This document shows positions 22,802 to 58,867 of a stretch of DNA of 64,000 nt, in pieces; position 1 is the first letter of the stretch; each line of letters begins with the position of its first letter. A program made the position numbers and the translations under genes. The stretch covers positions 2,202,466 to 2,266,465 of the forward strand of contig BPGV01000001.1 of the NCBI GenBank assembly GCA_026003215.1, written 5' to 3'. The stretch is from Bacteroidia bacterium (GTDB lineage: Bacteria; Bacteroidota; Bacteroidia; SpSt-205). The notes beneath the pieces were generated by a model, which was not told the DNA's origin, ran no database searches, and was given only the letters and a program-made list of their open reading frames with translations.

Positions 22802-23370
22802 GTGATAGTGGGATATATTTTGTGGAGTTCGTAGCGCATTCTATCTATAATAGGGGCTAAAGAGTCTTCGGCTCCAGCTACTTTGAAGTAAGAGGCTATC
22901 ATCACAGCATAGCGCGTCGAGTCGGTAAAAAATAAAAGCGCATGGGTAGGTACATCGCCATAGAGCTCGTAGAAAAACCCTTTACCTGTTTGGCTACGGA
23001 CAGGTTTTTCGCTGATATCGGTGGCCCTAATGGCGTGTTTATAGATGAGCTTTCGGTAGATTTCTAAGGCTTTGGCTGGGGTAGTATGGAGCTGGGCCAG
23101 ATCATGGGCTGTAATATGCCAGTAAGCATCTAAATCAGGAAAGTATAAATCAAACCAGCACGAGTCTTTGGGCACATAATGCAAGCGAGCATAAGCCGGG
23201 TAAGCAAAGCGTATAGGACATATTTCACAGGCGAGCGTATCATACCGTCCGGTATCAGGTAGCAGGAGCCTGGGGTAGGTCTTGGGGCGAGGAAACGGCT
23301 GACTCTGGCAGCCGATAAGCCCGAATACGCTCAATCCGATGAGGGCTTCTATCCACCACTTCAAAGGCAT
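22759..23370 (-). CDS. gldD: Lipoprotein, candidate gliding-motility GldD
   Basis: The lipobox (GLIGC), a ~200-aa length, and a position immediately downstream of a gldE-like gene match the gldE-gldD arrangement described in Flavobacterium. Sequence similarity cannot be verified by eye. Confidence 0.4.
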   Translation of the reverse strand: MPLKWWIEALIGLSVFGLIGCQSQPFPRPKTYPRLLLPDTGRYDTLACEICPIRFAYPAYARLHYVPKDSCWFDLYFPDLDAYWHITAHDLAQLHTTPAKALEIYRKLIYKHAIRATDISEKPVRSQTGKGFFYELYGDVPTHALLFFTDSTRYAVMIASYFKVAGAEDSLAPIIDRMRYELHKIYPTITWKPVSLTRTRTCF

Positions 23371-24592
23371 AGTTGCGGTAATATATGGTTTCTCCTTTCT
23401 CCGGGATGTCTTCTGCGAGCGAGAGTAGAAACTCAGCCAGGTTTTCGGCGTTTCTGGCGGCTTCTTCTTGGAAAAAGTCTGATGGCAGCTGAAGTACTTC
23501 TTGAACGATTACCAAAGGAGTATGCGCTTGAAAATATACGCTACCCTCGGACTGGATCTCGTAAAGGAAAGAGGTAGGATGTTCCTCTTCTCTGTATCCA
23601 AACACTACCTCTAACAAGCGCTGGAGTGAAATAATCCCCGCCACAGAACCAAACTCATCCACCACAATAGCTACATGCTGGCGCTGGTTTTTGAGTTCTA
23701 TCAAAAGCTCGTAGGCATTTTTATTTTCCGGCACAAAATAGGCGGGCCTGATAAGCGCCTGCCAGTTTGAAACTTCTTCTTTTGGCCAGTGCGGCAAGAT
23801 ATCCTTTACCATTAATATGCCTCGTATATCGTCTAAACTTTCTTGATAGATAGGGATGCGTATGTATGGAAGCGAGCTTAGGGTAGCTTTGAGCTCTTGC
23901 CAAGAAAGTGATATCGGGATAGCCTTCATGTCCATGCGAGATATCATAAAAGACTTTATCGGCAAGCGGCGTAAGAGAAGGAGATTCTTAAGAACTTTCT
24001 TTTCAATAGGAGGGGATAGCTCTGTGGGAAGGAGTTCTACGAGGTCGGAGAGGCTTTCTGGGGAAGAGGTGGGCTTCCAGTAGCGTTCTATCTGGTGGCG
24101 GAGTGTAGTCAGTTTTTGCGTAAGAGGATATACCAGCCAAAAAATGAGCTGCACAAGCGGAGTTCCCCAGCGAAGAAATACCCTCGGCCGCGTGAGGGCC
24201 AGCGTTTTAGGGAGGATCTCTCCTAATAGTACAATAATTGCCAACGCCATGAGCGCAGATAGCCCCTCGCCATAAGGAAGCCCCCACGCTTGGGCCGTAT
24301 AAAAGAGGAGGAGGGTAAGGCCGAGATTGGCTAAAGTATTGCCTACAAGGAGCACACTCAGGAGCACCTCGGGCTGCTCTGCAAAGTATCTGACCCAATA
24401 GGCCCATGGGCGGTGCTTGTAGGAGCTGAGAAGCTTATGTATGTCTCCTCCACTTAGGCTAAAAAAGGCCGTCTCGTATCCCGAGAAAGTGGCTGAGAGT
24501 AAAAGGAAAGCGACTGTGCCTACAAGGGGTACTGGGTCCAACGCAGGACAAAGGTAAGAAGATTCCGAAAGAGTGGTCCCTGCAACCGCCAA
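23255..24592 (-). CDS. gldE: CNNM/HlyC-CorC family membrane protein (DUF21 + CBS pair + CorC_HlyC), candidate gliding-motility GldE
   Basis: Four N-terminal TM helices, tandem CBS-like regions, and a C-terminal transporter-associated domain. It is 445 aa and followed by a lipoprotein, as expected for GldE. Confidence 0.65.
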   Translation of the reverse strand: MAVAGTTLSESSYLCPALDPVPLVGTVAFLLLSATFSGYETAFFSLSGGDIHKLLSSYKHRPWAYWVRYFAEQPEVLLSVLLVGNTLANLGLTLLLFYTAQAWGLPYGEGLSALMALAIIVLLGEILPKTLALTRPRVFLRWGTPLVQLIFWLVYPLTQKLTTLRHQIERYWKPTSSPESLSDLVELLPTELSPPIEKKVLKNLLLLRRLPIKSFMISRMDMKAIPISLSWQELKATLSSLPYIRIPIYQESLDDIRGILMVKDILPHWPKEEVSNWQALIRPAYFVPENKNAYELLIELKNQRQHVAIVVDEFGSVAGIISLQRLLEVVFGYREEEHPTSFLYEIQSEGSVYFQAHTPLVIVQEVLQLPSDFFQEEAARNAENLAEFLLSLAEDIPEKGETIYYRNYAFEVVDRSPHRIERIRAYRLPESAVSSPQDLPQAPAT

Positions 24593-24617
24593 GGTGTCGT
24601 GTGCGTATAAATAATGT

Positions 24618-24818
24618 ATGAAAAAGATAGCGTTAGTCGTGGTTCCCCTGCTGGGGGTGGCGCTGGCGAAAGCCGAAGCGCAAGTAGAAGTAGAAAAGGT
24701 GCACGAACGGGTGACGGTGACTGTGGGTCCGGGGAAGAACTATCGGGCGAAGCTGGCGCAGTCGTATTTTGGGGGGCGAGGGAAGTGTCGGAACTGGAAA
24801 CGTTTTTGTGGTCGGTGA
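24618..24818 (+). CDS. Small secreted cationic Cys-containing peptide (hypothetical)
   Basis: 66 aa. It has a clear signal peptide (MKKIALVVVPLLGVALAKA) and a basic C-terminus (GGRGKCRNWKRFCGR). GC-rich hairpins follow it directly. Confidence 0.3.
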   Translation: MKKIALVVVPLLGVALAKAEAQVEVEKVHERVTVTVGPGKNYRAKLAQSYFGGRGKCRNWKRFCGR

Positions 24819-24825
24819 GTGGAGG

Positions 24826-24880
24826 CCTGCTTAGGCAGGCCTTTTTGTGGGGCGGTGCAGCCGCCTGTGGCGGCTGCACC
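24826..24880. terminator. Two consecutive GC-rich perfect hairpins (ggcctgc-ttag-gcaggcc; ggcggtgcagccgcc-tgt-ggcggctgcaccgcc)
   Basis: Inverted repeats read directly from the sequence, with a T-run (ctttttgtgg) between them. They belong to a hairpin family seen elsewhere in the window. Confidence 0.45.
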
Positions 24881-25355
24881 GCCCCCTGCTTTTTACTAAA
24901 CTTGTCCTGGGCAAACATGTCCCCCTTTTTCTGGCTCCAACTCTGGGGCACCCCTCTCGCCCTGGCTTCAGAGGTTGCCCCCCGCTATACCTACCTACCG
25001 CTACGGTAGGCGCTCATAGACTGCGACTCGCTTCTGCGGCACGCCGGGCTGAAGGATACCATAACCTCCTTATGGGAGCCGTGAGAGGGCTATCGTTTAG
25101 CGCAGACTGCTAACGGAGTTACTCTCTCTGCAGGCGACACCCTCGGGTGGATATATGGTTTGTATGCCCTTCTGCAAGAGAAGTGGGGTTTTGTCTTCAT
25201 GCATCCGCAGGTCACGGTGCGCACGGATCATTTGCCCTGCTGGCGGGTACTGGAAGCGGTCCCTCGTTTCTCTTGGCGAGGATTGCATTTGCGTACGCAG
25301 CACCCTATCGAGCTTACCGAACCTTTACTGATCCTTCTTTTCCCGAGGGAGAGCG

Positions 25356-33922: not shown

Positions 33923-35216
33923 CTTGGCCCAGATTCGCGTAGAAGGTATAGCCGCTGTGGTAGGGGATGAGATTATTTTAGAGTCCCAAGTAGCGCAGCA
34001 GTATGCTTATCTTAAGCAGATGGGCCATGCCGATGATGGGGGCTTATACTGTGAGGTACTGGAGCAGTTGATTGTCCAAAAACTTTTGCTGGTACGAGCC
34101 CGGTTAGACAGCCTTAAGGTCTCTGACGAACAGGTGGAAAGGGAGTTAGAACGGCGCTTGCAGATTCTTACAGCGCAGTTGGGTTCCCCAGAAGCCATCG
34201 TAGAAATTTACGGAAGGCCACTTCCTGTCCTGAAACAAGATCTACGAGCTGAGGTCCGTAATCAGATTTTAGCTGAGGAAATGCGCCAAAAGATCCTCCA
34301 AGAGGTGAAGGTAACCCCCCAAGAAGTGCGGGACTTCTTTCGCAGTATTCCGCCGGACAGCCTGCCGTACGTGCCCGCAGAAGTAGAGCTGAGTCAGATT
34401 GTGGTATGGGCGAAGCCTTCCGCCGCTGAAAAGGAGGCTACCCGGAGCCGGTTAGAACAGATTCGGCAAGAGATCGTGGCTGGTAAGATGGATTTTGCTT
34501 CTGCGGCGCGGGCTTTCTCGCAGGATGTGGGTTCGGCGCGGCAAGGCGGGGCCCTCGGCGAGTTTAGCCGCGGCCAGATGGTTCCCGAATTTGAACGCAT
34601 GGCTTTTTCTGTGCCTATCGGTGAGGTCTCCCCCGTGTTTGAAACGCCGTACGGCTTCCATATCCTCCTGGTAGAGAAGCGGGTAGGCAATAAAGTGCAA
34701 GCTCGGCATATCCTCTTGCAACCAGCGATTACGGAGGCAGATGTAGAGACGGCTCGACACCAGTTAGAGGACCTGCGCGAGCGTATTTTACGAGATAGTA
34801 TCACCTTCGCTCGGGCGGTGGTGGAGTTTTCTGAGGATATTCCTACCAAGCAGGCAGGGGGTAGGCTCATGGATGAAGAAACAGGCAGTTATAGACTGCC
34901 GCTGGATAAACTGGATGCAGAGCTGTATTTTATTGTGGATGGCCTGCGACCAGGGGATATCTCCCCGGCGCATGCTTTCACAGCCAAGGATGGACGTAAA
35001 GGCGTGCGGATTGTTTGGCTTCAGCGGCGCTATCCGCCGCATAGAGCTTCCTTGGAGCTGGATTATGAGCGGTTTGCGGAGGCAGCCCTCGAGTTGAAGA
35101 AACAAGAAGCAGTAGCCCGGTGGTTAGAGAAAGCACGTAAAAATGTGCCCGTAGAAATACGGGCGGAGCGGTGCGCCGAGGCCCTTTCAGAGTGGGAACG
35201 GGGAAGGGAAAAGTAG
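33849..35216 (+). CDS. SurA-like periplasmic chaperone/PPIase (SurA_N + two parvulin domains)
   Basis: Parvulin cores (QGGALGEFSRGQMVPEF, ARHILLQP..., GGRLMDEE...), with the start chosen at a signal-like Met (ATG at 33849). The upstream alternative at 33804 is also possible. Confidence 0.6.
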   Translation: MRGCPLLKIPFISGLWPVLMCGSISLAQIRVEGIAAVVGDEIILESQVAQQYAYLKQMGHADDGGLYCEVLEQLIVQKLLLVRARLDSLKVSDEQVERELERRLQILTAQLGSPEAIVEIYGRPLPVLKQDLRAEVRNQILAEEMRQKILQEVKVTPQEVRDFFRSIPPDSLPYVPAEVELSQIVVWAKPSAAEKEATRSRLEQIRQEIVAGKMDFASAARAFSQDVGSARQGGALGEFSRGQMVPEFERMAFSVPIGEVSPVFETPYGFHILLVEKRVGNKVQARHILLQPAITEADVETARHQLEDLRERILRDSITFARAVVEFSEDIPTKQAGGRLMDEETGSYRLPLDKLDAELYFIVDGLRPGDISPAHAFTAKDGRKGVRIVWLQRRYPPHRASLELDYERFAEAALELKKQEAVARWLEKARKNVPVEIRAERCAEALSEWERGREK

Positions 35217-35220
35217 GGGG

Positions 35221-35297
35221 GCGGGCGGCGGCGCCGCCACAGCGGCGCCGCCGCCCGCATAAAAAAGGGGCGGGGCGGCCGTAGGCCGCCCCGCCCC
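35221..35297. terminator. Bidirectional terminator region made of two GC-only perfect hairpins between convergent genes
   Basis: gcgggcggcggcgccgcc-acag-cggcgccgccgcccgc and ggggcggggcggcc-gtag-gccgccccgcccc, flanked by A/T runs (ataaaaaa, caaaaaatc). Confidence 0.55.
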
Positions 35298-38885: not shown

Positions 38886-41030
38886 TTGTCTGGTATGGCT
38901 CGGCTGCTTTTACTGGGATTGGGGATAATCTGGGCACAAGTGGGCTTGCGGCGGATTGCTCCGCCGGTCGTAATGGCCCAGGAAACCCTACTTAATCCTT
39001 GGACAGGCGGGTGGAATGCACCGCAGTTTTCTACTATAGATGGCGATGGGGATGGGATAGCAGAGCTCTTTGTGTTTGACCGAGCCGATAACCGAGCTTT
39101 TCTTTTCCAAGCTACGCCTCAGGGCTGGCGATGGATGCCTCAGGGAGATACCCTTTTCCCCACCGAAAAGCTTTCCGCTTGGGTGCTTCTGCGGGATTAT
39201 GACGGGGATGGAGATAAAGACCTCTTTACAGCGGTAGGGTCAAATATCCGAGTGTTCCAAAATATAGCTTCAGCCGGGGCTCCCCCCCGGTGGCGTCTGG
39301 CTTATGATACCCTTAGCTCGGTGTATTATGGGAGTTCTACTTATCTCTACTGCGGCTCCATAGACATACCCACCCTCACCGACATAGATAACGACGGCGA
39401 TACAGACCTCTTAGTTTATGAGGTACTGGGGAGCCTGATAGAATGGCACCGTAACCAAGCGCAAGAGCTTTTCGGTCGGGCAGATACCCTTATCTTCGTG
39501 CTTCAGTCGGGCTGCTGGGGCCATGTGTTTGAAAACTACGACTACAACACCAATCAGTTTTCGTTTGTTTCGTATACCTGCGGTGCGGGACAAAGAACCT
39601 CAGGCGAGGGCCGTACCTATCATAGTGGAGGCACCATTTTAGCCATAGACCTTAATAAAGATGGTCTAAAAGACCTGATTGTAGGGGATGATGGACCGCC
39701 TTATTTGATTACCGGCTTCAATAGCGGCTCGCTCCAAGTCGCGCATATAGACCCGGCTACGGCTATCTCGCCGTATCCGCCTTTGGCGCCGGCGTATATG
39801 CCGAGTTTTCCTGCCACCTATTATGAAGATGGAACAGGGGATGGTTTGCCCGATCTAATAGTCGCCAATAACAGCCCGTTGGCGGGACGCGACACTTGGA
39901 GCGTGTGGCTGTATCCCAATACGGCGCGAGCTGACTCCCCCCACTGGGCTATGCCCATAGGGGGATGGCTCCACCGCAGCCAGATAGACATCGGTACAGC
40001 GGCTCATCCTACTTTGGCGGACCTCAATCGCGATGGGTATCCCGACCTGCTCCTAAGCTGCGAAGGCTTCTACACCGATACCGGCCAAAAGGCGCGAGCC
40101 TACCTTTTCTGGGGTTCTGCCACAGGCTTTACGCTGGCCGACTCTAACTGGCTGAGCCTGCCTACCTACACCTTGCGCAATCCTGTTTTTACGGTCGGAG
40201 ATATAGACGCGAATGGGCGTACAGACCTTTTGATGGGTACCAGTACGGGGGCTTTATGGCGCTGGGAAGAAAACAGCCCGGGCAGCGCCAGCTTTTCGCT
40301 CCTTACCCAGAACTTCGCTGGGATTAGCGGGCCAGCCTTTGCGGCGCCGCTCCTCTATGACTACGACCAAGACGGCGACCTGGACCTCGTCATAGGCGGA
40401 CGGCCCGGCCGCCTCTCCCTCTATCGGCAAGAAGCCGGCGGCACCTTCACCCACATAACCGACTCCTTGGGCCAAATCTTCATGAATGATACCCTCAGTA
40501 CTTTCTTAGGTTTTACCCGGCCAGCCCTAATAGACCTTAATAAGGACGGCACCTTAGAGCTACTGGTAGGGAACCTGACGGGTTTTTTGTGGGTGTACCT
40601 CCCGGACTGGAATACTCCCACAGCCCCTTGGCCTAAGGTGGCAGAGCTACCTTATGCCGGAGGCAAGCGGGCCAGCCCCACCGTATGGATGACACCTGAC
40701 TCGGTACTCTTACTGGTAGGTACCTTGCGCGGTGGAGTGCAAGCTTTTACCCTTGCGCCAGGAGGGCCGACGGCGAATGTCCTCCCCGCTGCCCAGCCTA
40801 AACCCTATGCCGTGTCTGTGCAGGGGCCAGGGCTGCACTTCGTAGCCAATGCGCCTTTGGAAGTGGAGGTATACACGCTTTTGGGAGAGCGGTTGCAGCG
40901 GTTTAGCGGCGTGGGGGAATTAAAGTGGGCTGTGCCAGGGCCAGGGGTATATGTCCTGCGGGTTTGGAGTGGGGTAGGGTTATGGGTGGAGAAGGTGTGG
41001 GTGGGGGGGGAGGGGGTGCCAGCGCCGTAG
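38886..41030 (+). CDS. FG-GAP/VCBS-repeat secreted protein with a T9SS C-terminal sorting domain
   Basis: Repeated DxDGDGxxDL calcium-binding FG-GAP motifs (DGDGDKDLF, DNDGDTDLLV, DANGRTDLL, DQDGDLDLV). The C-terminal ~80 aa are CTD-like (VEVYTLLGERL...VYVLRVWSG). Confidence 0.65.
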   Translation: MSGMARLLLLGLGIIWAQVGLRRIAPPVVMAQETLLNPWTGGWNAPQFSTIDGDGDGIAELFVFDRADNRAFLFQATPQGWRWMPQGDTLFPTEKLSAWVLLRDYDGDGDKDLFTAVGSNIRVFQNIASAGAPPRWRLAYDTLSSVYYGSSTYLYCGSIDIPTLTDIDNDGDTDLLVYEVLGSLIEWHRNQAQELFGRADTLIFVLQSGCWGHVFENYDYNTNQFSFVSYTCGAGQRTSGEGRTYHSGGTILAIDLNKDGLKDLIVGDDGPPYLITGFNSGSLQVAHIDPATAISPYPPLAPAYMPSFPATYYEDGTGDGLPDLIVANNSPLAGRDTWSVWLYPNTARADSPHWAMPIGGWLHRSQIDIGTAAHPTLADLNRDGYPDLLLSCEGFYTDTGQKARAYLFWGSATGFTLADSNWLSLPTYTLRNPVFTVGDIDANGRTDLLMGTSTGALWRWEENSPGSASFSLLTQNFAGISGPAFAAPLLYDYDQDGDLDLVIGGRPGRLSLYRQEAGGTFTHITDSLGQIFMNDTLSTFLGFTRPALIDLNKDGTLELLVGNLTGFLWVYLPDWNTPTAPWPKVAELPYAGGKRASPTVWMTPDSVLLLVGTLRGGVQAFTLAPGGPTANVLPAAQPKPYAVSVQGPGLHFVANAPLEVEVYTLLGERLQRFSGVGELKWAVPGPGVYVLRVWSGVGLWVEKVWVGGEGVPAP

Positions 41031-41118
41031 GCGCTGGCACCCCGTATGGGGCCGGGCGGGCCGCAGGCCCGGCCGGCCCAGCGGCGGCCGCTGCCGCAGG
41101 CAGCGGCCGCCGCTCCCT
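41015..41118. repeat. GC-rich triple-hairpin element, copy 1 (paralogous to 45786-45886)
   Basis: Three consecutive perfect palindromes: ggtgccagcgcc-gtag-gcgctggcacc, gggccgggcgggcc-gcag-gcccggccggccc and gcggcggccgctgcc-gca-ggcagcggccgccgc. It overlaps the stop codon of the FG-GAP gene. Confidence 0.65.
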
Positions 41119-41153
41119 TAGTTCTTTGTAAGAAACTTTTCTTTAACTTCGCT

Positions 41154-41516: not shown

Positions 41517-44500
41517 ATGCGTCTCGTAGGCATATATGGGCTTGCTTCGCTTCTATGGGCACAGACTATCTTAGTGAACGGTACAGGTGCGGGTTCCTTT
41601 GAAGGGGGCACGGGTTGTACTGGTAACTCTTATACTGTGGATGGCTGGACCATCGTTAATGGCACGCAGACCAACCGCTGGGCTGTCAATACCGGCGCTG
41701 GGGCCCAGCATGGCAGCCGGGCTATCTATATCACGAATAACTGTGGCGCTACCCCCCCCTCCTAATTCGTATACTATAACTTCTTCCTCCGTTGTACATT
41801 TTTATCGGGATGTGGCGCTGCCAGCAGGAGAGCCTTACATGACTATTTCGTTTTATGTAAAGGTCGAGGGAGAAGGCACTACTACTCAGTATGATTATTT
41901 GGATGTTTTGGTGGCCCCGACGAGTGTAACGCCTGCGGCAGGTACTGAGGTGAGTAGCACCTATCGGCTGGCGCGGTATAACCTACTGGGGAGTAGTTGG
42001 GTGCAGCGGACAGTGCGCTTTTGTGGGACAGGAGGGCAGACCTACCGGGTGATATTTTCTTGGCGGAATGATGCATCGGCGGGCACGCAGCCGCCCGCTG
42101 CCGTAGATCAAGTGCATATCACCAGTTCGGCTACGCCGCCTCCTACGCCCTGGATTGTGAATGTTTCTGCCCTCCCCTACAGCCACGGCGCTGATAATAC
42201 CTGTGGGAAAGGGAATAACCTCACCAGCAGCAATGTGTCTCCTACTTGCGGGAGTACTTCCTATTATGGTGGGGAGGATATGGTATGGGTTTTCACGCCG
42301 AACAGCTCTGGTATGGTTACGATTACGCTGAATGCTTCTACTACCTATACGGGTCTTAAGTTGTATCAGGGGGGGACGCTCAATCCGTGTGGCGGGCTCA
42401 CGGGGGCCACCTGCGTAGGCGAGGCAAACTCGGGGTCGAGCACCGCCAGTAACCTTACCCTCACTGCCTGTGTTCAGCCCGGGCAGACCTACTACCTGCA
42501 AGTAGATTATTGGCCTTCTCCTACGTGCGGTGCGATTACGAATCTCACTATTTCGGCGCCAACGCCCCTGGAGCCTGTACAGGCTTGGGTACGGGCGTGA
42601 CGACCGTCACCGCGCTTCCCTACAATAGCGGAGCCGGCACTACGTGTGGCGCTGTGGATGACATCACCTCCAGTAACGCGTGGAGCTGTGGGAGTAGCAG
42701 CTACTTTACCGGGGAGGATAGGGTATGGGTCTTCACGCCTACCACCTCGGGCGCCGTAACGATTACCCTGACCCACAGTAATGCCAGCTCGCCCTGGTTT
42801 GGTCTGAAGGTGTATGAGGGCTGCCCGCGTACTTCCAGTTGCGGGGTATGTGTAGGCTCTTGTGAAAGTAGTAGTGGGCCTTATTCCTTTAATGTAAATG
42901 TCACAGCGGGGAAGACCTATTATGTGGTATTGGATCATTATGCCTCGCCTGCTTGCGCTTCGTATGACAATCTGTCCATCTCTGCCCCAGTGAGTGGGGG
43001 AGGCGGAGCCTGTGGGTCGCCGGTCCTCTCCAGCTTTCCGGTGATTACGACGGGCACGACTGCTGGGGCGCCGCCGTTGGGGGTCTCGCCGAGTTGTGCC
43101 GTAGGGGGTAGCTGTGGAGGGGGTGGCGCTGTCGGACGGTGGTATCAGTTTATCCCTACGGCTTCCAATATGACTATTCATGTAGCGCCGGGCACCCTTA
43201 CCGACCCCGCCGTGGTTGTATTCAGCGCGCCTTCGTGTGGTGGGCCTTTCACAGAGATAGCCTGTCAGCAGGATGGTAGCAACACGGGGAATGACTGTGA
43301 GAGTTTTCCCTACTATGCCCATTTAGACCTTACCGGGCTTACCGTGGGGCAGACCTACTACATAGCAGTTTTTGGGGCGTCAGGCAGTGGGGATTATACC
43401 TTGGCGATATGGGAGACGGCCGCGCAGCCTCCTTCGCAGTTTGGGCAGGACTGTAACGCGATATCGGGCAACCCCGCCACCGGTCCGCTCCCCGTATGTA
43501 GTTCTACCTTTTCGGTGGGTGCACCGGGTTTTTTGGGGTCTGGTTTTACCTGTGACCTGCCGTATCCTGCCTCAGGTTGTCCAGGAAGTTGCCTGACCAG
43601 TGGAGAACGGAATATTGTTTGGCTCCGCCTCCCGATTGCCAGTAGTGGTAACCTCTCCTTTGCCATCACCCCCGCTCAAAATGTAGACTACGACTGGACC
43701 TTGTACCGTATAGATAATGTGTCTAACCCCTGCCAAGCTATACGTAATGGCACATTGCAGCCTGTAAGGTGTAGTTATGATGCGCCTACCTCGTGCGATG
43801 GCACCTATGGTACAGGGGTAGCGTGTGGTACGCCGGGGTGTGCTTCCGGCACCTGTGAAGGATCAAGCGGGCAAGGGTGGCTGCAGTGCCTACCCGTAAA
43901 TGCCGGCGAGGTGTATCTTTTAGGGATTTCTAACTTTAGCACGAGTACCTTTCCCGGGTTTAGTGTAGATTTTGGGACATCGCCGATTGATTATGGAGCG
44001 GCGAGTGCAGGACCGGCGGTGTGGACGGGCGGCGGCGGCACCACCGCCTGGAATAACAACGCCAACTGGGGTGGGTGCGCCTTTCCAGATAACTGTGCCA
44101 AGGATGTGGTAATCTACGGCGGCGCCGCTAACCAGCCGGTGATTGCTGCTGCAGAGACCTGGACGGTACAAAATATCACCATTCCTGCTGGGGCTAAGCT
44201 CACCGTCAATGGCACCCTCAACGTCTGCGGTCACCTCACCGTAAATGGGGAGCTGGACGGCACCGGCTGGATTGTGTTTGTTGGGGGGGCTGCTTACCCG
44301 GTGCAGGAGATACGCGGCGTGCTCACAGGGCCTACCCAATACATCCCCAACCTGCGCATAAACCGTGCTGCCGCCGGGACGGTGCGCCTCATGACCAACG
44401 TCCAAGTGCGTGGCCATGTGCAAATAGACAATAGCGCCAATAACACCCTGAACCTCAACAGCTATACCTTATTCGTAGGGGGGAACTTCGTAAATGTGGG

Positions 44501-45782
44501 GGCAGCTGGGACCTTTACCCATGGCAATGGTAGGGTTGTCTTCAACGGCACTGGCCCACAGACCTATACCGACCCCGGCATAGACCCCTTCTATACCGTA
44601 GAGATGAACCAAAATCCCCCCTCCACCCTCACACTCAATAATCGCATGGACATCACGAATCAGCTTACGCTCACTTCGGGGGTGATTGTTACGGGCACAA
44701 ATGAGGTTCGGGTAACCAATACCGCCACTACGGCTGTGACCCCCGGCAACACCAATAGCTATGTGCGAGGATACCTTCGGCGGTATATTGGAGGTATGGG
44801 CGGGTATGACTTTCCGGTGGGTACTGCCTCGTACCAGCGGGCAAATGTGAACTTCACTGCGGCACCGGGGGTACATAACCTCTTAGCGTGGTTCAACGAT
44901 TGGGCTCCTTCTCCGCCGACCCCGCCTAATCCCACTGCGGAGTGCGGCGCTCAATACCACGCTTGTCCCATGCTGAATAACGGCTACTGGACTATCAATG
45001 CCTATAATAGCAGCTTTGCGCAGGTGACTTCCAGTGGTACTTACACGATGACGCTCTACAATACGGCCTATACGGCGTGTGCGGGAGCTGTACAATTCGG
45101 GGTATTGAAGAATACGGGCGCTGGGTGGTTCATTCAAAACCCGGGCTGTTATGCCAATGCCAGTGCAGCGACGGTTCAGCGGCCGGGCATGAGCGGCTTC
45201 TCTAACTTTGGTACGGGACAAAGCCTCACCCCTCTGCCGGTGTATCTCACCCGCTGGGAAGGGGAGGTTCGGCCGGATGAGTCGCACCTGCTGCGGTGGG
45301 ATGTGGTGGCGGAGGAGACGCGGGTTTCTCGCTTTGTGGTAGAGACAGGCGCTGCGCCGGAGGCACTCTCTCCATGGCGTACCTTCGGCCCCGAAGTACG
45401 GCAAGCTGTGCGGGAAAATCCGCCGTTTGGCAGCTCCTTCTATCGGCTGCGTATTTACACGGTGGAAGGGGCCGAGTTTGCGAGTTCGGTGATAGAGCTG
45501 CAGCGGGGAGTGGGGAGTATCAATCCCTTGCAAAGTCTGGAAGCCTTCCCGAATCCTACGACGGGAGAACTTACGGTGCGCTTTATGGTAGGTGAGCTGA
45601 CTCCGGTGCATTTGTCGCTGGTGAATGCGCTGGGGCAGCGCGTATGGGAAAAGGTAGTGGAGCCTGCGGCTAAGGGATGGGTGGAGGTGCCGGTGGATAT
45701 GCGGGCTTTGCCGGTGGGGCCGTATCTATTGCGGGTAGAGGGCGAAGGGGTAGTGCGGACGCGGGTGGTAGTGCGTGAGTGA
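41517..45782 (+). pseudogene. Giant T9SS-secreted adhesin-like protein split into three frames (41517-41765, 41587-42600, 42510-45782). Domains: Cys-rich domains, PPC-like, right-handed beta-helix, type-A CTD
   Basis: Signal peptide at 41517. The first frame change is exactly at a C8 tract (41752-41759), where C7 would give a continuous reading. A second frame change lies between 42556 and 42600, near a cccc run. Two tandem ~130-aa Cys-containing domains (ALPY..TCG..GED.VWVFTP..VTITL..GLK.Y.G..YY..NL.ISAP) bridge the breaks in the correct order. The CTD is ...HLSLVNALGQRVWEK...YLLRVEGEGVVRTRVVV. Confidence 0.6.
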
Positions 45783-45785
45783 GTA

Positions 45786-45886
45786 GGGGCGCCAGCGCCT
45801 GCGGCGCTGGCGCCCCGTATGGGGCCGGGCGGGCCTGCGGCCCGCCCGGCCCCGCGGCGGCCGCTGCCACAGGCAGCGGCCGCCGC
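45786..45886. repeat. GC-rich triple-hairpin element, copy 2 (about 90% identical to copy 1)
   Basis: ggggcgccagcgcc-tgc-ggcgctggcgcccc, ggggccgggcgggcc-tgc-ggcccgcccggcccc and gcggcggccgctgcc-aca-ggcagcggccgccgc. It lies immediately after the stop of the giant T9SS gene. Confidence 0.65.
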
Positions 45887-45891
45887 CCCCT

Positions 45892-46248
45892 TTATAACTG
45901 CACTTGCCCCGTGTAGTCTATCCCCTTATACGTTATCCGATACCGATAGCTGCCCGCTAACCCCTTTGCCCCAGGCAAACGCCGCTCCCGCTTCCCATTC
46001 AGACTGGGCCACTGGAAAAAATACACCACTGAATCCCCTTTCCCCAAAAGCCGCAGTTCTACCATCCCGTCAAAGGGGATTTCATAGCGTATGCTCAGCG
46101 CATCTTCACCTTCTTTTGTCAAAGCTTCCAGTTTGAAGGTGTTTTGTTTTTTGAGCGGCTGGGGGGGTTGGGCGTAGGTTATCCCGCCCCACACGCACAG
46201 AGCTATTATTTGAGCTTGGATAAAAGCAGGTAATCGCAATCGGTCCAT
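45892..46248 (-). CDS. Small secreted hypothetical protein (118 aa)
   Basis: Signal-like N-terminus (AFIQAQIIALCVWGGITYAQ). ORF only. Confidence 0.3.
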   Translation of the reverse strand: MDRLRLPAFIQAQIIALCVWGGITYAQPPQPLKKQNTFKLEALTKEGEDALSIRYEIPFDGMVELRLLGKGDSVVYFFQWPSLNGKRERRLPGAKGLAGSYRYRITYKGIDYTGQVQL

Positions 46249-50026: not shown

Positions 50027-53000
50027 ATGGGCCGACTTTTGCTAAGGCTGCTATGGATAGGCGGGCTACTCGCACAAGAATGCGATATCATTTATGTCAC
50101 CCCGAATGGTGCCACCGGGCCTGGCGCCGGGACCCGCGATAATCCCGCCGAGCTCAACTATGCTATTGCTAACCTCCTCACGCCTACTATCCGCCGCATC
50201 TACCTGGGCTATGGGATTTACACCTTGACGCAGCCCCTCCCCCTCCATAACGGTCTACAACTGGAAGGGGGCTTTGACCCCAGCCAAGCCTGGGTAAAAA
50301 CCAACCTTTACCCTACTATCCTCTTCCGAGCAGCAGTGAATCCCCAGTCTAACCCCAGCCGGCTCGTGGCTATAGAGGGTATAAATGTGAACGGCTTCCG
50401 CATACAAGACCTGGAGGTGTATGTGGAGGATGCGACGGCCTTGGGGGCAGGTACTACTACCTATGCCCTCTATTTGAATGGGTGCAGCAACTATGTGGTG
50501 AATCGCTGTCGGTTTTCGGCGGGGGCGGGGGCGAATGGCGACCCTGGTCAAAATGGCGCTGCAGGCCGCAATGGGGCGGCTGGACAGATAGGCCAGCAAG
50601 GGGATGAAGATGCCGGCTGCTGCCGAGCCGGGGGCGCAGGCGGCAATAGCTGGTCGGGCGGTCTCGTAGCCGGCGGCCGCGGCGGCGACGGCGGCCAACG
50701 TGGCACCTGTGGCCCTGGTGGCCAAGCTTATAATGGCGCGCCGGGCCAACAAGGTATCCCTCCCTCTCCCCAGCCGTATGCACCCGCAGGCGGCGCCGGA
50801 GGGGCTGGCGGCGTAGGAAATAGCTCTATCATTTCTTTGGGGTGTGACAACTTCGCTGCTCAGAATGGCGCCGATGGACAGCCTGGCCAAGATGGAACCA
50901 ATGGCGCTGCTGGGGGGCCCGGTACGCCTACCCATGCCGGCGGCTTCTTTCGCCCAGGCGATGGGCAGGACGGCCAAGATGGCCAGCATGGCTCCGGCGG
51001 CGGGGGCGGCGGTGGTGGCGGTAGCCAAGGTAATCTGCTATGTTTTCCGTCTAATCTTAACGGGACAGGTGCCGGCGGCGGCGGCGGTGGAGAAGGCGGC
51101 GAAGGGGGCAAAGGCGGCAAAGGCGGCGGGGGCGGCGGCGGCTCCTTCGGCATCTACCTCTGGAATAACGGCGCTAATGCCCTCTTTGTGGATGTAATAG
51201 CCGCATCCAGCTTGCCGGGAGCCGGCGCCCCAGGAGGATTTGGCGGCATCGGCGGCATAGGGGGCAGTGGCGGCTGCGGTGGCGCTCGCGGCTGCGCCGG
51301 CCAGCCTAACGCTTGCGATATTGGCTATGGCGGTAACGGCGGCCGTGGGGGCAACGGGGGGAACGGCGGCAACGGCGGCCCAGGCGTCGCCGGCCTCGCC
51401 CAAGACGTCTATATCTCTGCGGGTAGCACAGCGCCTACCCTCTCGTCCTTCCGCAGTCCCGACGAACCTAAAATCTTTGTGCGTTACACTGGCTGCACCG
51501 AGCGTACCGTGAAACTTTGGACCGATGCGGCGGGCTACATCGTCTGGTTCTTCGGGCCAGGGAGTACCCCCCCTACAGCTATCGGCGATACCGTCACTAC
51601 CCGCTATACGACCCTCGGCCGTAAAAGCCTTTCCCTCATCGTCAATGGCCAGACCTACACCTATTACGAGTTTTTGGACATTCGGGATGATGGGACGGGT
51701 ACTAATCCTACCTTCACGCAAAGTGCCGATACGGTATGCTTAGGCGGGCAAGTCACCTTCACCAGCAGCTTAGCTGGTGCCGCTAACTACCTCTGGGACT
51801 TCGGCGGAGGCGCCCCGCCTGTCTCTGGCCCCCTCAATAACATAGCCCAGCCGACCTTCAATACCCCAGGTACTTTTGTGGTGACCCACCAGACCTATTC
51901 GCCCTGCTGCGGCTGGTCTGACCCCTACCAGGATACCATAGTGGTTTTGCCCACGCCCGCTCCTACGCTGACTATACAAACCTCTACGGGTTCTACGGAA
52001 ACGTGCGAGGGTACGCCTGTTATCTTTACCGCTCAGCTCCAAAACTTTGCGCCCAATCCGACCATCACTTGGCAGGTGAATGGTACCCCCCGCAGGCACG
52101 GGCCAGACCTTTATCCTCACCAATCCCCAGCCGGGCGACCAAGTGCAAGCCATCGCCATCGGCAATACCGCCTGTTCCCGAGGACAGCCCATTTCGTCTA
52201 ATACGATCACCCTTACTGTCCATCCCCGTCCTGTTATTCAGCCGCTGGCAGTGGGCTGCTTCCAAATCACAGGGAACCTTGTGCCCGGAGACCTGATTAC
52301 GCTCTCGGCTTCGGTCTCGGGCGGGAGCGTGCCCTATCAGTTTTATTGGGACTTAGGGGATGGGCGCGGCGCTACAGGCAATCCCGCTACCGTCATGTAT
52401 CCTACTGCGGGTACTTACCGCTTGCGGCTTACAGTAGTAGATGCCAACGGCTGTACCAGCAGTAATACCGCTGCTTGCGAGACTACCTTGGTGATTGCTT
52501 ATCGGCCGGTGGCGGCCTTCTCGGCCACGCCTCTCCAGGGCTGCCCACCCCTCACGGTCTCCTTCACGAACCAGAGCATCTACGCAAACGCTTACCTCTG
52601 GGACTTTGGCGATGGCTCTCCCACTACCACTCAGCTTAACCCCATGCATACTTACACTACCTCAGGCGAATACACGGTTACTTTATACGCCATCTCGGCA
52701 GGAAACAACGATACGGCCACCGTGCAAAATCAAGTGGTGGTCTATCCCGTACCGGTGGCAGATTTCTCGGTATTCCCGCCCGTACTTTATGAAGCCGATA
52801 CTGCCTATTTTGTCTCTCAGGCGCAAGGGGCAAGTAGCTGGCTGTGGTTCTTTGGCGACCCTGCTAACCCTAACGCCTCGTCCACCGACCCGAACCCCTC
52901 GTACTTTTACGCACAACCGGGCAGCTATACGGTCACCCTCATCGTAACCAACCTCTACGGCTGTAAAGATACTTTGGTCAAGACGGATGCCGTTATAAAA

Positions 53001-53258
53001 CTCCCCAATCCAGCGCCTACGGCTTTGGGTACGTTCCCCCGAGAAGCCGTGCAGGTGTGGCCTAATCCCTTCACAGACAAGCTCTATGTGCGCTTACCGG
53101 AGGAAGCCTCTCTCGTGATGTACGATGCGCATGGGGTCTTGATATGGGAAGGGCAGTTGTCCCGGGGCATGCAGGCTTTGTCTTTCATGCAGCTGCCGAC
53201 GGGATTATACTTTTTACGGATAGGCCCTTGGACAATCAAAGTACATAAACTCGGCTAA
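50027..53258 (+). pseudogene. Giant Gly-rich/collagen-like PKD-domain T9SS cargo protein, split at a C6 tract (fragments 50027-52201 and 52080-53258)
   Basis: Signal peptide, an N-terminal domain paralogous to the 53263 gene, and collagen-like GXY runs (GDPGQNGAAGRNGAAGQIGQQG). It also has poly-Gly, PKD-like WDFGGG/WDFGDGS units and a C-terminal CTD. The frame switches at the cccccc run 52086-52091, where C5 would read ...VNGTPAGTGQTFILT continuously. Confidence 0.6.
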
Positions 53259-53262
53259 TCTT

Positions 53263-56200
53263 ATGGCAAAAATATACGCTTTCTGGCTGGCTTCGTTATA
53301 TGTATATGGCCAGGCCTGTGGCTATTTGTATGTGTCTCCCATGGGTACAGCCACGGCTGCGGGTACGCCGGCGGATCCGCTTTCGCTGTCCGCGGCCATA
53401 GCCCAGGCAGCTGCAGGTCCGATAAAGCACATTCGGCTGGCGATAGGGGATTATCCGCTGACTGCGCCGCTCTCCTTGGAGGATAACCTTATTTTAGAGG
53501 GGGGCTTTGACCTAAGCAATCCCGCCCAACCGGTCAAGCGCAGTGGGGGCATCACGCGCCTACGTAGGCTCAGTGGTACGCCGGAGCCTAACCCCTGCCG
53601 CCTTGTAGCCGTTCAAGCTGTCAGCAAGACTGGCTTTGAGCTCCATGACCTCTATATAGAGGTAGAAAATGCCAGCTCGACGGCGGATGGGCCCAGCTGC
53701 TCTACCTATGGCTTGTACTTGAATGGCTGCGCTAACTATCAGATTGTGCGGTGTCGGATTCATGCGGGGAATGCTACGGATGGAAAGCCCGGCGATCCTG
53801 TGCCTAATGGCCGCGATGGGGCTCCCGGCACCAAGGGTGAAGATGGCTGCCGTCAGTGCCAGCCTGGGGTAGATGATCCCAATAACGACGGGGGGGGAGG
53901 CGGCAGTAGCTGGTCAGGGGGCGCCCAAGCGGGGGGTAATGGCGGTAATGGTGCTCCCATTGGTACAGGACGCGGTCCTGCTGGGTGTTTTGACCTTAAC
54001 TTTTGTAACGGCGCTTCAGCTCCTAATGGGCAGCCCGGCCAAAACGGTGCTACCACTGTCATGGGGCAGCCCGTAGGACTGGGCGGCGGGTCGGGTCAAG
54101 GCCAAAATATCTGTGCTAACTTCACTGATGCAGCGGGCTTTATCGGAGCCTTAGGGGGATGTCCGTCGGATGATCCGTTGCGCGGGGGCCAGCCTGGCAC
54201 GGATGGGGCTAATGGCCGGGACGGAGCGGATGGTCAGCCCGGTAGCCCCGCTTTTACAGGAGGGTGGTTTATCCCTGGGAATGGGCAGGATGGCCAGCCT
54301 GGGGAGCATGGCGCGGGTGGAGGTGGGGGGGGGGGGGAGGGGGTGCGCTCGGCGGAATCCCTTATGATATTGCCTGCTTTCGCATAGACGATGGCTACAC
54401 GAATAGTTCCGGTGGGGGCGGTGGTGGGGGTGGGGAAGGTGGGGAAGGTGGCCCTGGGGGCAAAGGCGGCGGTGGGGGCGGTGGGGCTTTTGCGCTCTTC
54501 CTCTGGAATAACGGCGCAAATGGGGTCATCCGAGACTGTCCCCTCACGGTGGGCCAGCCCGGCCAAGGGGCCCCCGGCTCGCCGGGGGGTTTAGGCGGAC
54601 AAGGAGGGGCCGGCGGCTGCGGTGGTGGATGGATTGGCTCACCTTGTACCCGCTTCTGTGGCTCGCCGCCCCTTCCCAACAATAGCTGTGGGGCCGGCTG
54701 CCAAGGGGGATGGGGCGGCAACGGCGGAAAAGGCGGCAACGGCGGCAAAGGCGGAAAAGGCGGCGATGGCGCTGCAGGTATTGCTCAGCCCTTCTATCAA
54801 AACCTTGCCGGCCAACCCCCTACCCAAACCAACAGCTTCGTTCCCACCGAAACGCCTATTGCCGTGTCGGGCCTCGTCTGTACCCACTCGGAGGTCACCT
54901 TCACTGTGGAGAATGCCGACCCTCTCACTCAATATGAGTGGGGCTTCGGCGCTAATGCGCAGCCCATCTTCGGCTATGGTCCTACCGCTACTACGGCTTT
55001 TACTTCGGCCGGCTTTCATACTATCCTGCTGCGCGTGAATGCCGTGCCCTTCCGATACACCCTTTTTGCCTCCCCGCTCCAACCGGGGGTTATTCCCGAT
55101 ATTCAACCAGTGGGCAGTCTTCCCGTGTGTTTAGGCGCTACTGCTACCTTCCAAGCTAACCTCACCAATCCCGCCAACCGCTCCATTCTGGAATACCACT
55201 GGCAGCTTACAGGCCCTGTCTCGGATAATGTTTCATCGGCGACGGCTTCCACTTATACTACGCCCGCTTTGACCCAAACAGGTACTTATACCCTGTACTT
55301 GCGGGTACGCTCCGAGTGCTGCGGGTGGTCCTTACGCGATTCGCTCACTTTTCAGGTAGTGCCTTCGCAGACGATGACGGCGCAGCTTATCGCCGCGCCG
55401 CCTGCCGTATGTGCAGGCGAGCCTATCACCCTTACGGTAGTAGGCGGAAACCTTGGCGCTACGCCTACCTTCGTATGGCGTAAAAACGGCAGTCCCATTG
55501 CAGGCGCACCTAATGCCCCCACTTACACCGACCCTGCCCCCCAAAACGGCGATGTATATGAAGTCCAGGTCACTTCCAGCCTGGCCTGTATCAGCAATAA
55601 CCCCCTCACTACTAACACGGTTACGGTGGTAGTGCATCCTCGTCCGCAGCTCGCTTGCACCTCGCCCCTGAGTGGGTATTTGGGGGCACCCGTAACCTTT
55701 ACTATTGATGCTTCCAATGCTGGGCAGCTCCAAGGGCCTTTCTCTTACCAGATTGATTTAGGTAATGGCTTTTCGGTGACAGGTCAGTCGGCTACTTTGC
55801 CCGCCTCAGCTGCGGCTTCGTACGGAGGCGCAGGAACTTATACGGCTACTATTACCATGACCGACGCCAATGGCTGCTCGGCCTCTTGCCAGGTCACGGT
55901 GAATATCTCTGCGGCCCCGCCTCCTACGGCAGACTTTACTGCTGACAGGCAGGAGGGCTGTGACCAGCTCACGGTTACCTTCACCGCTACCCCCCCAGCA
56001 GACGAATACCGATGGGATTTTGGCGATGGCACCCCACCCCTTACCACTACCCAAAATCCCGTCCAGCATACTTACGCCCAGGTAGGCTTCTACACCGTGC
56101 GGCTGGAAGCCCGCTTCGGAGCTACCTGGGTCCCCGTGGAAAAGGTGCATTATATCCGAGTGTATCGTACCCCTTCCCCCCAGATTGGCGTGCTAAGCGC

Positions 56201-57185
56201 TATTTGTGAAAACCAGCCCGTGCAGTTTGGCGATATCGGTTCGGATGGATATAGCTGGCTGTGGGACTTTGGAGATGGAACCACCAGTACAGCCCCGGGC
56301 CCCCAGCATGTGTATGCTACCTCGGGTACCTATACCGTGACGCTTACTGCGTGGAGCCATAACCGCGTGTGTTCTACCACTGTGCAGACGCAGGTAGTAG
56401 TAGCTCGCCAGCCCCAAGCCAGTTTCAACCTCTCTCCTACGGAGGGGTGTCCTCCCTTTACGGTCACGCCGGAAAATACGTCTAATCCCTCGGGTGCGCC
56501 GGGCGTGTATTATATCTGGGTCTGGGGTGATGGCAGCCGGGATACGGTTTCTGCGCTTACGGCGCCCAGTCATACCTATACGCAGAGTGGTACCTTTACG
56601 CTGCAGCTGGTAGCGGTAAGCTCGGAAGGCTGCCGCGATACGGCGCAGGCGCAGGTGGTGGTACGTCCTCGGCCGCAGGCGGCTTTCTCGCCGCAGCAGG
56701 TGACCCAAACCCAGCCCAATACGCAAGTCTCCTTTACCAACCAATCCCAAGGCGCTGCCTCGTACTTGTGGGACTTTGGGAATGGCCAGACTACCACCGA
56801 AGCCCAGCCGGGGCCGGTGGATTTCCCCAATCCAGGCACTTATACGGTGCTGCTTATTGCCTACTCGGCCCAAGGTTGCCCTGACACGGCCCGAGGTATC
56901 GTCGTCATAGAGCCCGGCCTGGATATCTTCATCCCGAATATCTTTACCCCTAACGGCGATGGTATCAACGATGTATGGCAGATTCGTGCCACCCTATCCT
57001 ATCAAGTATGGGTGTATGACCGCTGGGGCAACTTAGTCTTTGAGGGGGATAATACCCGGCTCTGGGATGGGCGCAAGCGCGGCGGAGGCGACTGCCCGGA
57101 GGGCGCCTATACCTACAAGCTTATTGCCAGGCTGCCGAACGGCCAGACCTTTACCCGTTCGGGTACCGTAACCCTTCTCCGCTGA
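53263..57185 (+). pseudogene. Giant Gly-rich/collagen-like PKD-domain protein with a T9SS type-B (CHU_C-like) sorting domain, split at a G13 tract (fragments 53263-54387 and 54264-57185)
   Basis: Paralogous N-terminal domain (YLNGCANYQIVRCRIHAGNA versus YLNGCSNYVVNRCRFSAGAG in the upstream gene), GXY collagen-like triplets and multiple PKD-like WDFGDGT units. The C-terminus FIPNIFTPNGDGINDVWQI...YDRWGNLVFEG is the type-B sorting domain. The reading frame changes exactly at the 13-G run 54325-54337. Confidence 0.6.
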
Positions 57186-57682: not shown

Positions 57683-58867
57683 ATGACCAATAGGGTACAA
57701 ATTTTGGTTTTGAGACTTGCTCTGGTACTAAGTAATCTTTTGGCGCAGAATGTAGGTATCGGCACGAGCACACCTGTTTCCCGGTTGCATGTAGCAGGAA
57801 CGAATGCTACCCTTACCGTAGGCCCCTTTGGTATAGGCCAGAGTGAGGGGCGGATCGTAGCCACAGGAAGTGCAGCAGAGATTTCATTTGTGAGGAGAAC
57901 TCTTACCACTTGGCCTACTTCCCCTCAGCCTGGAGATAGATTCGCTTGGCATAATCCTGACGGTACTGCTCGCCTGTGGTCCAATGCCGACTTGGTATGG
58001 GTAACTGCGGGGGGTTATGTGGGCATAGGGACTTCGCCTGGGGTGCCGTTGCACGTGCGGAAGGATGCACCTGCTTCTCAGCCTACCGCAGCTTTCTTGA
58101 ATGCGAGCGGCGTAGGAGTATACATAGGCCACATAAGTGGCACAGGTACCTATGGCTCTGTACAAGGTAGGAATGGCGGTTCCTCCGCAAACCTTATTCT
58201 CCAAGAAAATGGAGGGCTTGTAGGCATAGGAATCAATACCCCCCAAGTAAAGCTCCATGTTGTAGATGTGATTGAGGCTTCCGCACCTGACTATAATCAA
58301 AAATCGGCTTCTATTACTGGAGACGGATCCGTGGAGCTTCTGCGTAACCCAAACTCGGGTGCATTGCCTTGTACTGGTGTATGGGGTTATATTGATTTTA
58401 AGAACCTTCGTTCAGATGACCATGATGGGCGTATCCTATATGGGGATGGCCCCTGTTCCCCGAGCACTCCTCCGACAGAGGGTTTTTACTTTCTGAGAGG
58501 GCTAAATGGGCAATCCTCCATAGGGACCTACACCAGCACAGGCTGGGGACATTCCTCGGATGGTCGTCTTAAGACAGATGTACATCCCCTCTCTGGCGCC
58601 TTAGAGCGGGTTATGCGTTTGCGTCCTGTGTATTTCCGGTGGAAAAATGAACCTCATCAACGACAAGTGGGATTTATTGCGCAAGAGGTAGCCGACGTTT
58701 TTCCGGAGGTAGTTTCGCAGGTGGAGGATACCTATGTGCTCTACCACGGAAGCTTGACAGCGCCATTAGCGGGCGCCATTCAGGAGCTATATCAGATTAT
58801 CGAAGCCCAGCGTGAGGAGATCCGGCAACTCAAAGCGCGCATAGAAGCTTTGGAGCGGAGTAGATAA
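57683..58867 (+). CDS. Tail-fibre-like secreted protein with a C-terminal peptidase-S74 intramolecular chaperone domain
   Basis: Signal peptide, then repeated (N/Y/L)VGIGT..P...LHV motifs (x3+). The C-terminus SSDGRLKTDVHPLSGALERVMRLRPVYFRWK...VGFIAQEVADVFPEVV is followed by a coiled coil, which is the endosialidase-chaperone (S74) signature. Confidence 0.6.
   Translation: MTNRVQILVLRLALVLSNLLAQNVGIGTSTPVSRLHVAGTNATLTVGPFGIGQSEGRIVATGSAAEISFVRRTLTTWPTSPQPGDRFAWHNPDGTARLWSNADLVWVTAGGYVGIGTSPGVPLHVRKDAPASQPTAAFLNASGVGVYIGHISGTGTYGSVQGRNGGSSANLILQENGGLVGIGINTPQVKLHVVDVIEASAPDYNQKSASITGDGSVELLRNPNSGALPCTGVWGYIDFKNLRSDDHDGRILYGDGPCSPSTPPTEGFYFLRGLNGQSSIGTYTSTGWGHSSDGRLKTDVHPLSGALERVMRLRPVYFRWKNEPHQRQVGFIAQEVADVFPEVVSQVEDTYVLYHGSLTAPLAGAIQELYQIIEAQREEIRQLKARIEALERSR

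Follow-up and report, generated by a model that had tools for sequence, protein, structure and literature searches.

In the 64,000-nucleotide stretch of contig BPGV01000001 analysed here (positions 2,202,466 to 2,266,465, called the window below), a conserved gene of 1,421 codons at 41517-45782, predicted to encode a cargo protein of the type IX secretion system (T9SS), is interrupted by two one-base changes in runs of C. We consider this to be, probably, a genuine and very recent loss-of-function allele of the Katase SpSt-205 population, and a real, recent allele is favoured over a sequencing error as its explanation. That the resulting three fragments are one gene is proven by the natural intact alleles found in other assemblies.

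The metagenome-assembled genome (MAG) in question, KatS3mg025, consists of a single contig of 2,268,343 bp (BPGV01000001), belongs to the order SpSt-205 of the Bacteroidota and comes from a hot-spring sediment at Katase with a temperature of 52 °C (Kato et al. 2022, PMC9671151). It was assembled with metaFlye 2.8.3 from the PacBio HiFi run DRR290133 at 10.4x coverage, without short-read polishing (PMC9671151). In the deposited record, the pieces of the 41517-45782 gene appear as the separate coding sequences (CDSs) KatS3mg025_1948 to _1950.

Two frame breaks in one gene

The gene and its parts are the following, all on the + strand:

41517-45782, +: whole gene, 1,421 codons, read in phase 0, then 1, then 0; a single open reading frame (ORF) after repair of C8 to C7 and C4 to C5
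41517-41765, +: fragment 1, 82 codons, putative signal peptide and start of the N-terminal domain; from the ORF list; GIV24289.1 (KatS3mg025_1948), cluster member P0121
41752-41759, +: C8 tract, first break; C7 (ACC CCC CCT, T-P-P) in four near-identical intact alleles
41760-42564, +: fragment 2, phase 1, rest of a choice-of-anchor-J-like domain and Cys-rich domain A; inside the mechanically called ORF 41587-42600
42565-42568, +: C4 tract, second break; C5 (CCC CCT, P-P) in all five intact alleles
42570-45782, +: fragment 3, phase 0, from Cys-rich domain B through the C-terminal sorting domain; GIV24291.1, 1,061 aa, cluster member P0123

The initial annotation had put the first break at the C8 tract, the window's sole C run of at least eight, and the phase 0 ORF indeed hands over to phase 1 exactly there. 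Starting from the ATG at 41517, this ORF ends with '...ITNNCGATPPS*' at the TAA codon 41763-41765, while past the tract the homologous reading resumes in phase 1 from 41760 ('...PNSYTITSSS'; PNSYTITSSSVVHFYRD...). When one C is removed from C8, the reading becomes continuous, 'ATPPPNSYTITSSS', as had been predicted for a C7 tract, and C7 is what the near-identical alleles carry. The second frame change, for which the interval 42556-42600 near a cccc run had been given, can now be pinned to the C4 at 42565-42568. Here 'NLTISAPTP' in phase 1 is succeeded by 'GACTGLGTG' in phase 0 from 42570, and the phase 0 reading after C4, 'GACTGLGTGVTTVTALPY...', runs to the stop at 45782.

Fragments 1 and 3 are in register with each other (both 41517 and 42510 are divisible by 3), which means that the record is one base over at the first site and one base short at the second. 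With C7 in place of C8 and C5 in place of C4, one ORF of 1,421 aa results, and the repaired gene of 4,266 nt has the same length as the intact alleles. In base-by-base alignments to these alleles, frame-changing indels were found at exactly the two C runs and nowhere else, so the coincidence of breaks and tracts is not a matter of chance. Two other arrangements were considered and ruled out. A compensating pair of frameshifts fails on the TAA that phase 0 meets two codons past C8. A mis-assembly between the tandem domains is likewise not in question, as these are 48% identical in protein and the differences between alleles are clean one-base changes.

Four contigs from other samples (SRR35365466, SRR30649429, SRR23854656 and JGI 3300044960; L001, L023, L024 and L025, respectively) are 99.3-99.9% identical to the window, and all of them have C7 and C5 and a single ORF of 1,414 or 1,421 aa. 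Within the gene, they differ from the window by the two run lengths and 1-11 single-nucleotide polymorphisms (SNPs). The literature was searched for the accessions of these samples, with no match. The repaired protein is identical to the natural alleles P0124 and P0126, and equals P0001 save for a 7-aa deletion in the latter. A fifth intact ORF of 1,421 codons is present in a 97% identical genome (GCA_026416395.1, L006), with C5 at the second site. At the first site this genome writes PPP as CCG CCA CCT, with no homopolymer, and the conserved PPP of more distant orthologues is coded by C4-C6 runs.

A homology search with the repaired protein returned the full-length P0001 at 100% identity and many other full-length homologues, among them the orthologue P0002 (67% identical, 1,427 aa, 100% coverage, a single ORF). 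The full-length homologues span all three frames, and no separate matches with starts of their own were obtained for the fragments. The earlier claim of one gene rather than three is thus borne out both by the single ORFs in five assemblies and by the 67% orthologue. Against the 97% relative, the intact gene has a dN/dS of 0.14, a value that indicates purifying selection where the gene is intact. It is in comparison with such orthologues that the two disabling frameshifts stand here, the gene being intact in five assemblies.

Further near-identical alleles were sought more widely. Protein-seeded scans of metagenome and GTDB genome collections returned orthologues of at most 79% identity alone and no more near-identical alleles, and an exact scan of JGI metagenomes with the pattern AACTGTGGCGCTA N{4,14} TCCTAATTCGTATAC, in which the tract length is variable, gave 0 matches. 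As a separate observation, the differences between L006 and the window are distributed as a mosaic, with 115 in the gene's first 900 nt, one in the remaining 3,366 nt, and flanks that are ca 3% diverged. This pattern of divergence suggests that most of the gene has recently recombined between lineages.

Mutation or consensus error

Indels specific to the window were called over the 57,463 bp that are covered by assemblies from other samples with at least 99% identity. Just seven were found:

24842: T5, T6 in the others; T-run of the terminator hairpin after a 66-aa ORF
24978: C6, C7 in the others; doubtful 65-aa ORF
41752: C8, C7 in the others; 1,421-codon gene
42565: C4, C5 in the others; 1,421-codon gene
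52086: C6, C5 in the others; splits a 1,076-aa PKD/T9SS gene
54325: G13, G11 in the others; splits a 1,306-aa PKD/CHU_C gene
58015: TT, TTT in the others; gene 57683-58867, intact in the window and broken in SRR35365466

Five of the seven are located in large secreted-protein genes, and the other two are in the terminator T-run and the doubtful 65-aa ORF. The sites at 24842 and 24978 are both outside well-supported genes. The remaining coding sequence has no window-specific indel, despite its 32 runs of at least seven bases (four G/C runs of at least eight, 12 G/C 7-mers, two A/T 8-mers and 14 A/T 7-mers). Several ORF pairs suspected of being broken (18271/18837, 33095/33804 and 46206/46726), as well as the chain at 22010-24951, proved to be individual, unbroken genes, namely PP2C, a TonB receptor, TatD, GldD, CorC, SurA and DUF3467.

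The explanation to be weighed most carefully against a real allele is that the organism itself has an unbroken gene, and that one or both run lengths are residual indel errors of a metaFlye-only assembly of HiFi reads at 10x. C8 would then be the likelier error, the neighbouring G13 would possibly be another one, and the three deposited CDSs would be annotation fallout. We regard this scenario as possible but doubtful. It is in line with how the genome was obtained, from reads above Q20 at 10.4x with metaFlye 2.8.3 and unpolished by short reads, and with the fact that the window-specific indels are all length changes of homopolymers. Moreover, the other assemblies, from at least five samples, concur on C7 and C5 in the gene, on C5 at 52086 and on G11 at 54325. 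What such errors do not account for is the distribution of the changes. None of the window's housekeeping genes is broken, and outside the surface-protein genes there are no indels at the 32 runs of at least seven, while runs of 2-6 are affected, which reverses the length dependence of HiFi errors. The absence of indels from housekeeping genes, together with the fact that short runs (4-6) are hit rather than those of 7-8, is thus unlike an error pattern.

The same reads also exist in a second form. Two Logan k-mer assemblies of run DRR290133, L008 and L030, agree with the window at 100% identity, with no discrepancy over ca 20.5 kb. One of them, L008, is 100% identical over 42373-45827 and has the same C4 as the window. 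Since this assembly is independent of the assembler used for the MAG, C4 is not a polishing artefact of metaFlye. With HiFi reads at 10x, it is very unlikely that the majority would miscall a 5-mer. In addition, the gene at 57683-58867, broken in SRR35365466, presents the reciprocal case, which shows that frameshift polymorphism in surface genes is not peculiar to the HiFi assembly. Taken together, the avoidance of housekeeping genes, the enrichment in the surface class and the k-mer identity favour real mutations that have been filtered by selection, and we infer that C8, too, is present in the DNA and is not just an error of the consensus.

It is important to point out that a number of observations weigh against this interpretation. 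The four frame-breakers at 41752, 42565, 52086 and 54325 fall within 16 kb, are unique to one 10.4x HiFi-only metaFlye 2.8.3 assembly, and are all in homopolymers, the characteristic error class of HiFi. The enrichment of indels in the surface and secreted-protein class (P 0.03-0.07) is a post hoc statistic and modestly significant. Relative to its nearest relatives, the gene has two frameshifts, zero non-synonymous changes and one synonymous SNP; this is an indel to substitution ratio of 2:1 within the gene, which one would not usually expect from neutral decay. Homopolymers also interrupt the Logan contigs: of four contig ends for the run, two lie inside them (42373 in a G7 and 52090 in a C6), which shows that the reads disagree at such runs. 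These contigs are fragmented between 39541 and 42373, the only hint of length heterogeneity at the C8 tract within the population, and no contig from the same reads was found across the C8 site. Exact-protein look-ups with the 82-aa fragment, the 714-aa neighbour and the 1,090-aa ORF gave no match, while the 118-aa upstream gene matched a JGI contig alone. The homology search with the middle fragment yielded no 100%-identical fragment entries.

Another scenario considered was that of a phase-variable contingency locus, in which the C tract and the adjacent G11/G13 would act as slipped-strand switches and the MAG would have been caught in the OFF state. This can be motivated by the fact that three adjacent large T9SS/PKD genes are OFF through changes in the lengths of G/C runs, the long G11/G13 among them, that a fourth surface gene is OFF in another sample, and that G/C runs of at least six are about 1.4-2x denser in the surface-protein class. 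However, the C tract was found to be C7 in all four other near-identical samples, with no series of C6, C9 and C10, and it is not conserved, considering the CCG CCA CCT of the 97% relative and the C4-C6 of distant orthologues, which the coding of PPP explains. The second break is furthermore in a C4/C5 run, which is too short to switch, so that a return to C7 alone would leave the gene off. Phase variation as known from Bacteroidota also works mainly through invertible promoters. We therefore consider a contingency locus improbable. The G11/G13 next door is the sole feature that resembles a contingency tract. The broader version of the idea, that in this uncultured, thermophilic lineage the SpSt-205 surface-protein cluster of T9SS cargo is switched gene by gene via slipped-strand G/C runs (C7/C8, C5/C6, G11/G13), is to our judgement just as improbable. 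If true, it would mean that natural populations differ in the adhesins that they display, and that surface variation based on homopolymers occurs in a phylum whose phase variation is known mainly to be driven by invertases.

A full-length protein could in principle also be produced by recoding, that is, by +1 ribosomal frameshifting or transcriptional slippage at C8 followed by a second shift at C4. Wherever in CCC CCC (C) a +1 shift takes place, it leads to the exact wild-type peptide ATPPPNS, and CCC-C is a known context of tRNA-Pro that is prone to +1 shifts, here with a stop two codons on. However, this route needs a second event, of -1, 813 nt downstream at 'ACG CCC CTG', which is not a slippery heptamer. 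The intact alleles are all plain ORFs, no orthologue requires recoding, and the arrangement is confined to one assembly. Recoding is thus extremely unlikely.

Returning to the recent loss-of-function allele, the events would be slippage-type mutations in two proline-codon C runs, from C7 to C8 at 41752 and from C5 to C4 at 42565. Ribosomes that begin at the native start would stop after 82 residues at the TAA 41763-41765, and at most a short secreted peptide would for that reason be made. The signal peptide would not be joined to the tandem PPC-like modules, the putative beta-solenoid or the T9SS sorting domain. The loss of the 1,421-codon gene along with two neighbouring T9SS genes would point to relaxed or diversifying selection on surface proteins.

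The encoded protein

The repaired protein begins with a putative signal peptide, MRLVGIYGLASLLWA/Q (then T), that was read from the sequence by eye. Residues 38-199 match the NCBIfam family choice_anch_J with an E value of 7e-4, below its cut-off, and this N-terminal domain spans the first break. It is followed by the Cys-rich domains A (residues 210-350) and B (352-492), which are arranged in tandem and are 48% identical to each other (E 6e-33); the Cys columns are invariant in the tandem Cys-rich modules. The initial annotation had proposed that two tandem Cys-containing domains bridge both break points. They do flank the second break, which is in the linker between A and B, while the first one is inside the N-terminal domain.

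At the other end of the protein, one domain could be assigned:

45546-45749, +: T9SS type A C-terminal sorting domain, residues 1344-1411; Por_Secre_tail, E 8.6e-5, 23.2 bits, below the 27-bit cut-off

This is the sole Pfam domain detectable in the repaired protein, and that below the cut-off. Of the 25 homologues aligned, 23 have the same domain (PF18962), for the orthologue P0002 the score is 27.5 bits, and the family profile matches the solved C-terminal domains (CTDs) 5jvk, 8glk_D and 8glj_D. Membership among the T9SS type A cargo is thereby strongly suggested through homology. In the allele of SRR35365466, a 21-bp in-frame deletion at 45688-45708, between 9-bp direct repeats (TGCCGGTGG), removes DMRALPV from the sorting domain.

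For the modules in between, GBD_T9SS_assoc (PF23759) was found in 13 of the 25 homologues and PPC (PF04151) in nine, at equivalent positions, whereas the PPC profile has no match in the repaired protein, even at E <= 1. Judged from the homologues, the tandem modules may be described as PPC-like. An AlphaFold2 model of fragment 3, based on a 40-sequence alignment, has a mean pLDDT of 84 and is all-beta with a C-terminal beta-sandwich. In the model, residues ca 861-1041 (about 44097-44639) form regularly spaced short strands, with further PPC-like beta-sandwiches before this stretch and more beta-sandwich domains after it. A Foldseek comparison of the model with the PDB returned tandem beta-sandwich proteins, for example neuropilin CUB/discoidin and the ColG collagen-binding domains (5iku), and gave no fold match for the stretch of short strands. 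The predicted structure of residues ca 861-1041 is consistent with a beta-solenoid, and the term 'beta-helix' is plausible on that basis.

The earlier label of a T9SS adhesin with PPC and beta-helix parts is accordingly a reasonable one as far as the homologues go, with Por_Secre_tail in 23 and PPC in nine of 25. In the protein itself the matches are below threshold and the solenoid lacks a fold match. The evidence supports a surface protein of several domains that is secreted by the T9SS and has PPC-like modules, and this protein may act as an adhesin. Within the window, gldD alone was seen of the T9SS and gliding machinery (PF25593, E 1.7e-28).

Surroundings and relation to known systems

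Downstream of the gene there are two further large genes with altered run lengths. The PKD/T9SS gene at 50027-53258 is split into ORFs of 724 and 392 aa by the C6 at 52086-52091, where L006, L009 and the SRR35365466 contig used for neighbouring genes (L007) carry C5 and encode a protein of 1,076 aa. It is inside this C6 run that the Logan contig from DRR290133 comes to its end. The PKD/CHU_C gene at 53263-57185 is split by the G13 at 54325-54337, for which L007 and L009 have G11, the protein being 1,306 aa in L007. This G13 is the window's longest homopolymer and codes part of a poly-Gly stretch made up of nearly all GGG codons. The gene at 57683-58867 encodes a secreted protein of 394 aa with a Peptidase_S74-type C-terminal domain and is intact in the window; in L007 it has a frameshift caused by an extra T, within a SNP-dense patch. 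Another dense patch, of ca 15 SNPs common to several other assemblies relative to the window, is located at 34422-34487 in a SurA-like gene and looks like a short recombination tract.

The gene is bordered by a repeated element:

41013-41119, no strand assigned: 107-bp G+C-rich triple-hairpin repeat, upstream of the locus and directly behind the FG-GAP surface protein gene that precedes it
45786-45892, no strand assigned: second copy of the 107-bp triple-hairpin repeat, directly after the stop codon of the 1,421-codon gene

The two copies are 89% identical, and each third of the element is a palindrome, which gives three consecutive hairpins with perfect stems. The element is hypervariable between assemblies, and L008 is without about 31 bp of the 45786-45892 copy. 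It is probably a terminator or an element like the repetitive extragenic palindromes (REP-like). Similar G+C-rich palindromes are found at 24850-24886 and about 35216-35290. A promoter and terminator scan around the gene gave nothing exceeding the shuffled expectation, and no RNA family of Rfam was matched anywhere in the window.

As for the implications, KatS3mg025_1948 to _1950 should be annotated as a single frameshifted T9SS cargo gene, and the two neighbouring genes likewise. The practical value of the present results is this correction, together with a flag on a small cluster of genes for surface proteins that are broken in a similar way. They also constitute a worked example of how homopolymer breaks in HiFi-only genomes can be weighed without the reads, by means of near-identical assemblies from other samples, k-mer contigs assembled from the same run and the avoidance of housekeeping genes by indels. 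If the breaks are real, related hot-spring populations that are more than 99.9% identical across the gene differ in the large surface proteins that they can make. Such a difference fits a fast turnover of surface proteins and is not a new principle. The feature is an ordinary one, either a strain-specific allele that was frameshifted very recently or, less likely, a residual homopolymer error of long reads.

Compared to known systems, the gene resembles the T9SS type A cargo proteins in its N-terminal, here putative, signal peptide, its chain of beta-sandwiches and its C-terminal sorting domain of ca 70 aa. The NCBI names its homologues 'T9SS type A sorting domain-containing protein', and the gliding and T9SS-associated gldD lies within the same window. 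It differs in that its CTD is below the Pfam cut-off and the allele is split by two frameshifts. The tandem modules of ca 130-140 aa are of the same kind as the PPC and collagen-binding beta-sandwiches (PF04151; ColG s3a-s3b, 5iku) and GBD_T9SS_assoc, although here they are Cys-rich and below Pfam significance. The tandem collagen-binding domains of ColG came third in the Foldseek ranking, with 17% identity and TM scores that are depressed by the multi-domain query.

With the poly-G/C loci of Neisseria, Haemophilus, Campylobacter and Helicobacter, the gene shares a G/C run near the 5' end of a surface gene that sets the frame. The tract here is, however, short (7/8), not conserved, invariant in the other samples and accompanied by a second break that cannot switch. 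The residual indels of long-read assemblies are similar in that they occur in low-coverage, long-read-only MAGs and fragment gene calls by run-length discrepancies, while those found here avoid both the housekeeping genes and the longest runs, and one of them is confirmed in the reads by k-mers. Strain-specific frameshift pseudogenes, finally, likewise have mononucleotide runs changed by one base, sister strains with an intact orthologue and dispensable surface proteins as their targets. The present case differs from these by having two breaks in one gene and no amino-acid change, and the allele, if real, is extremely recent.

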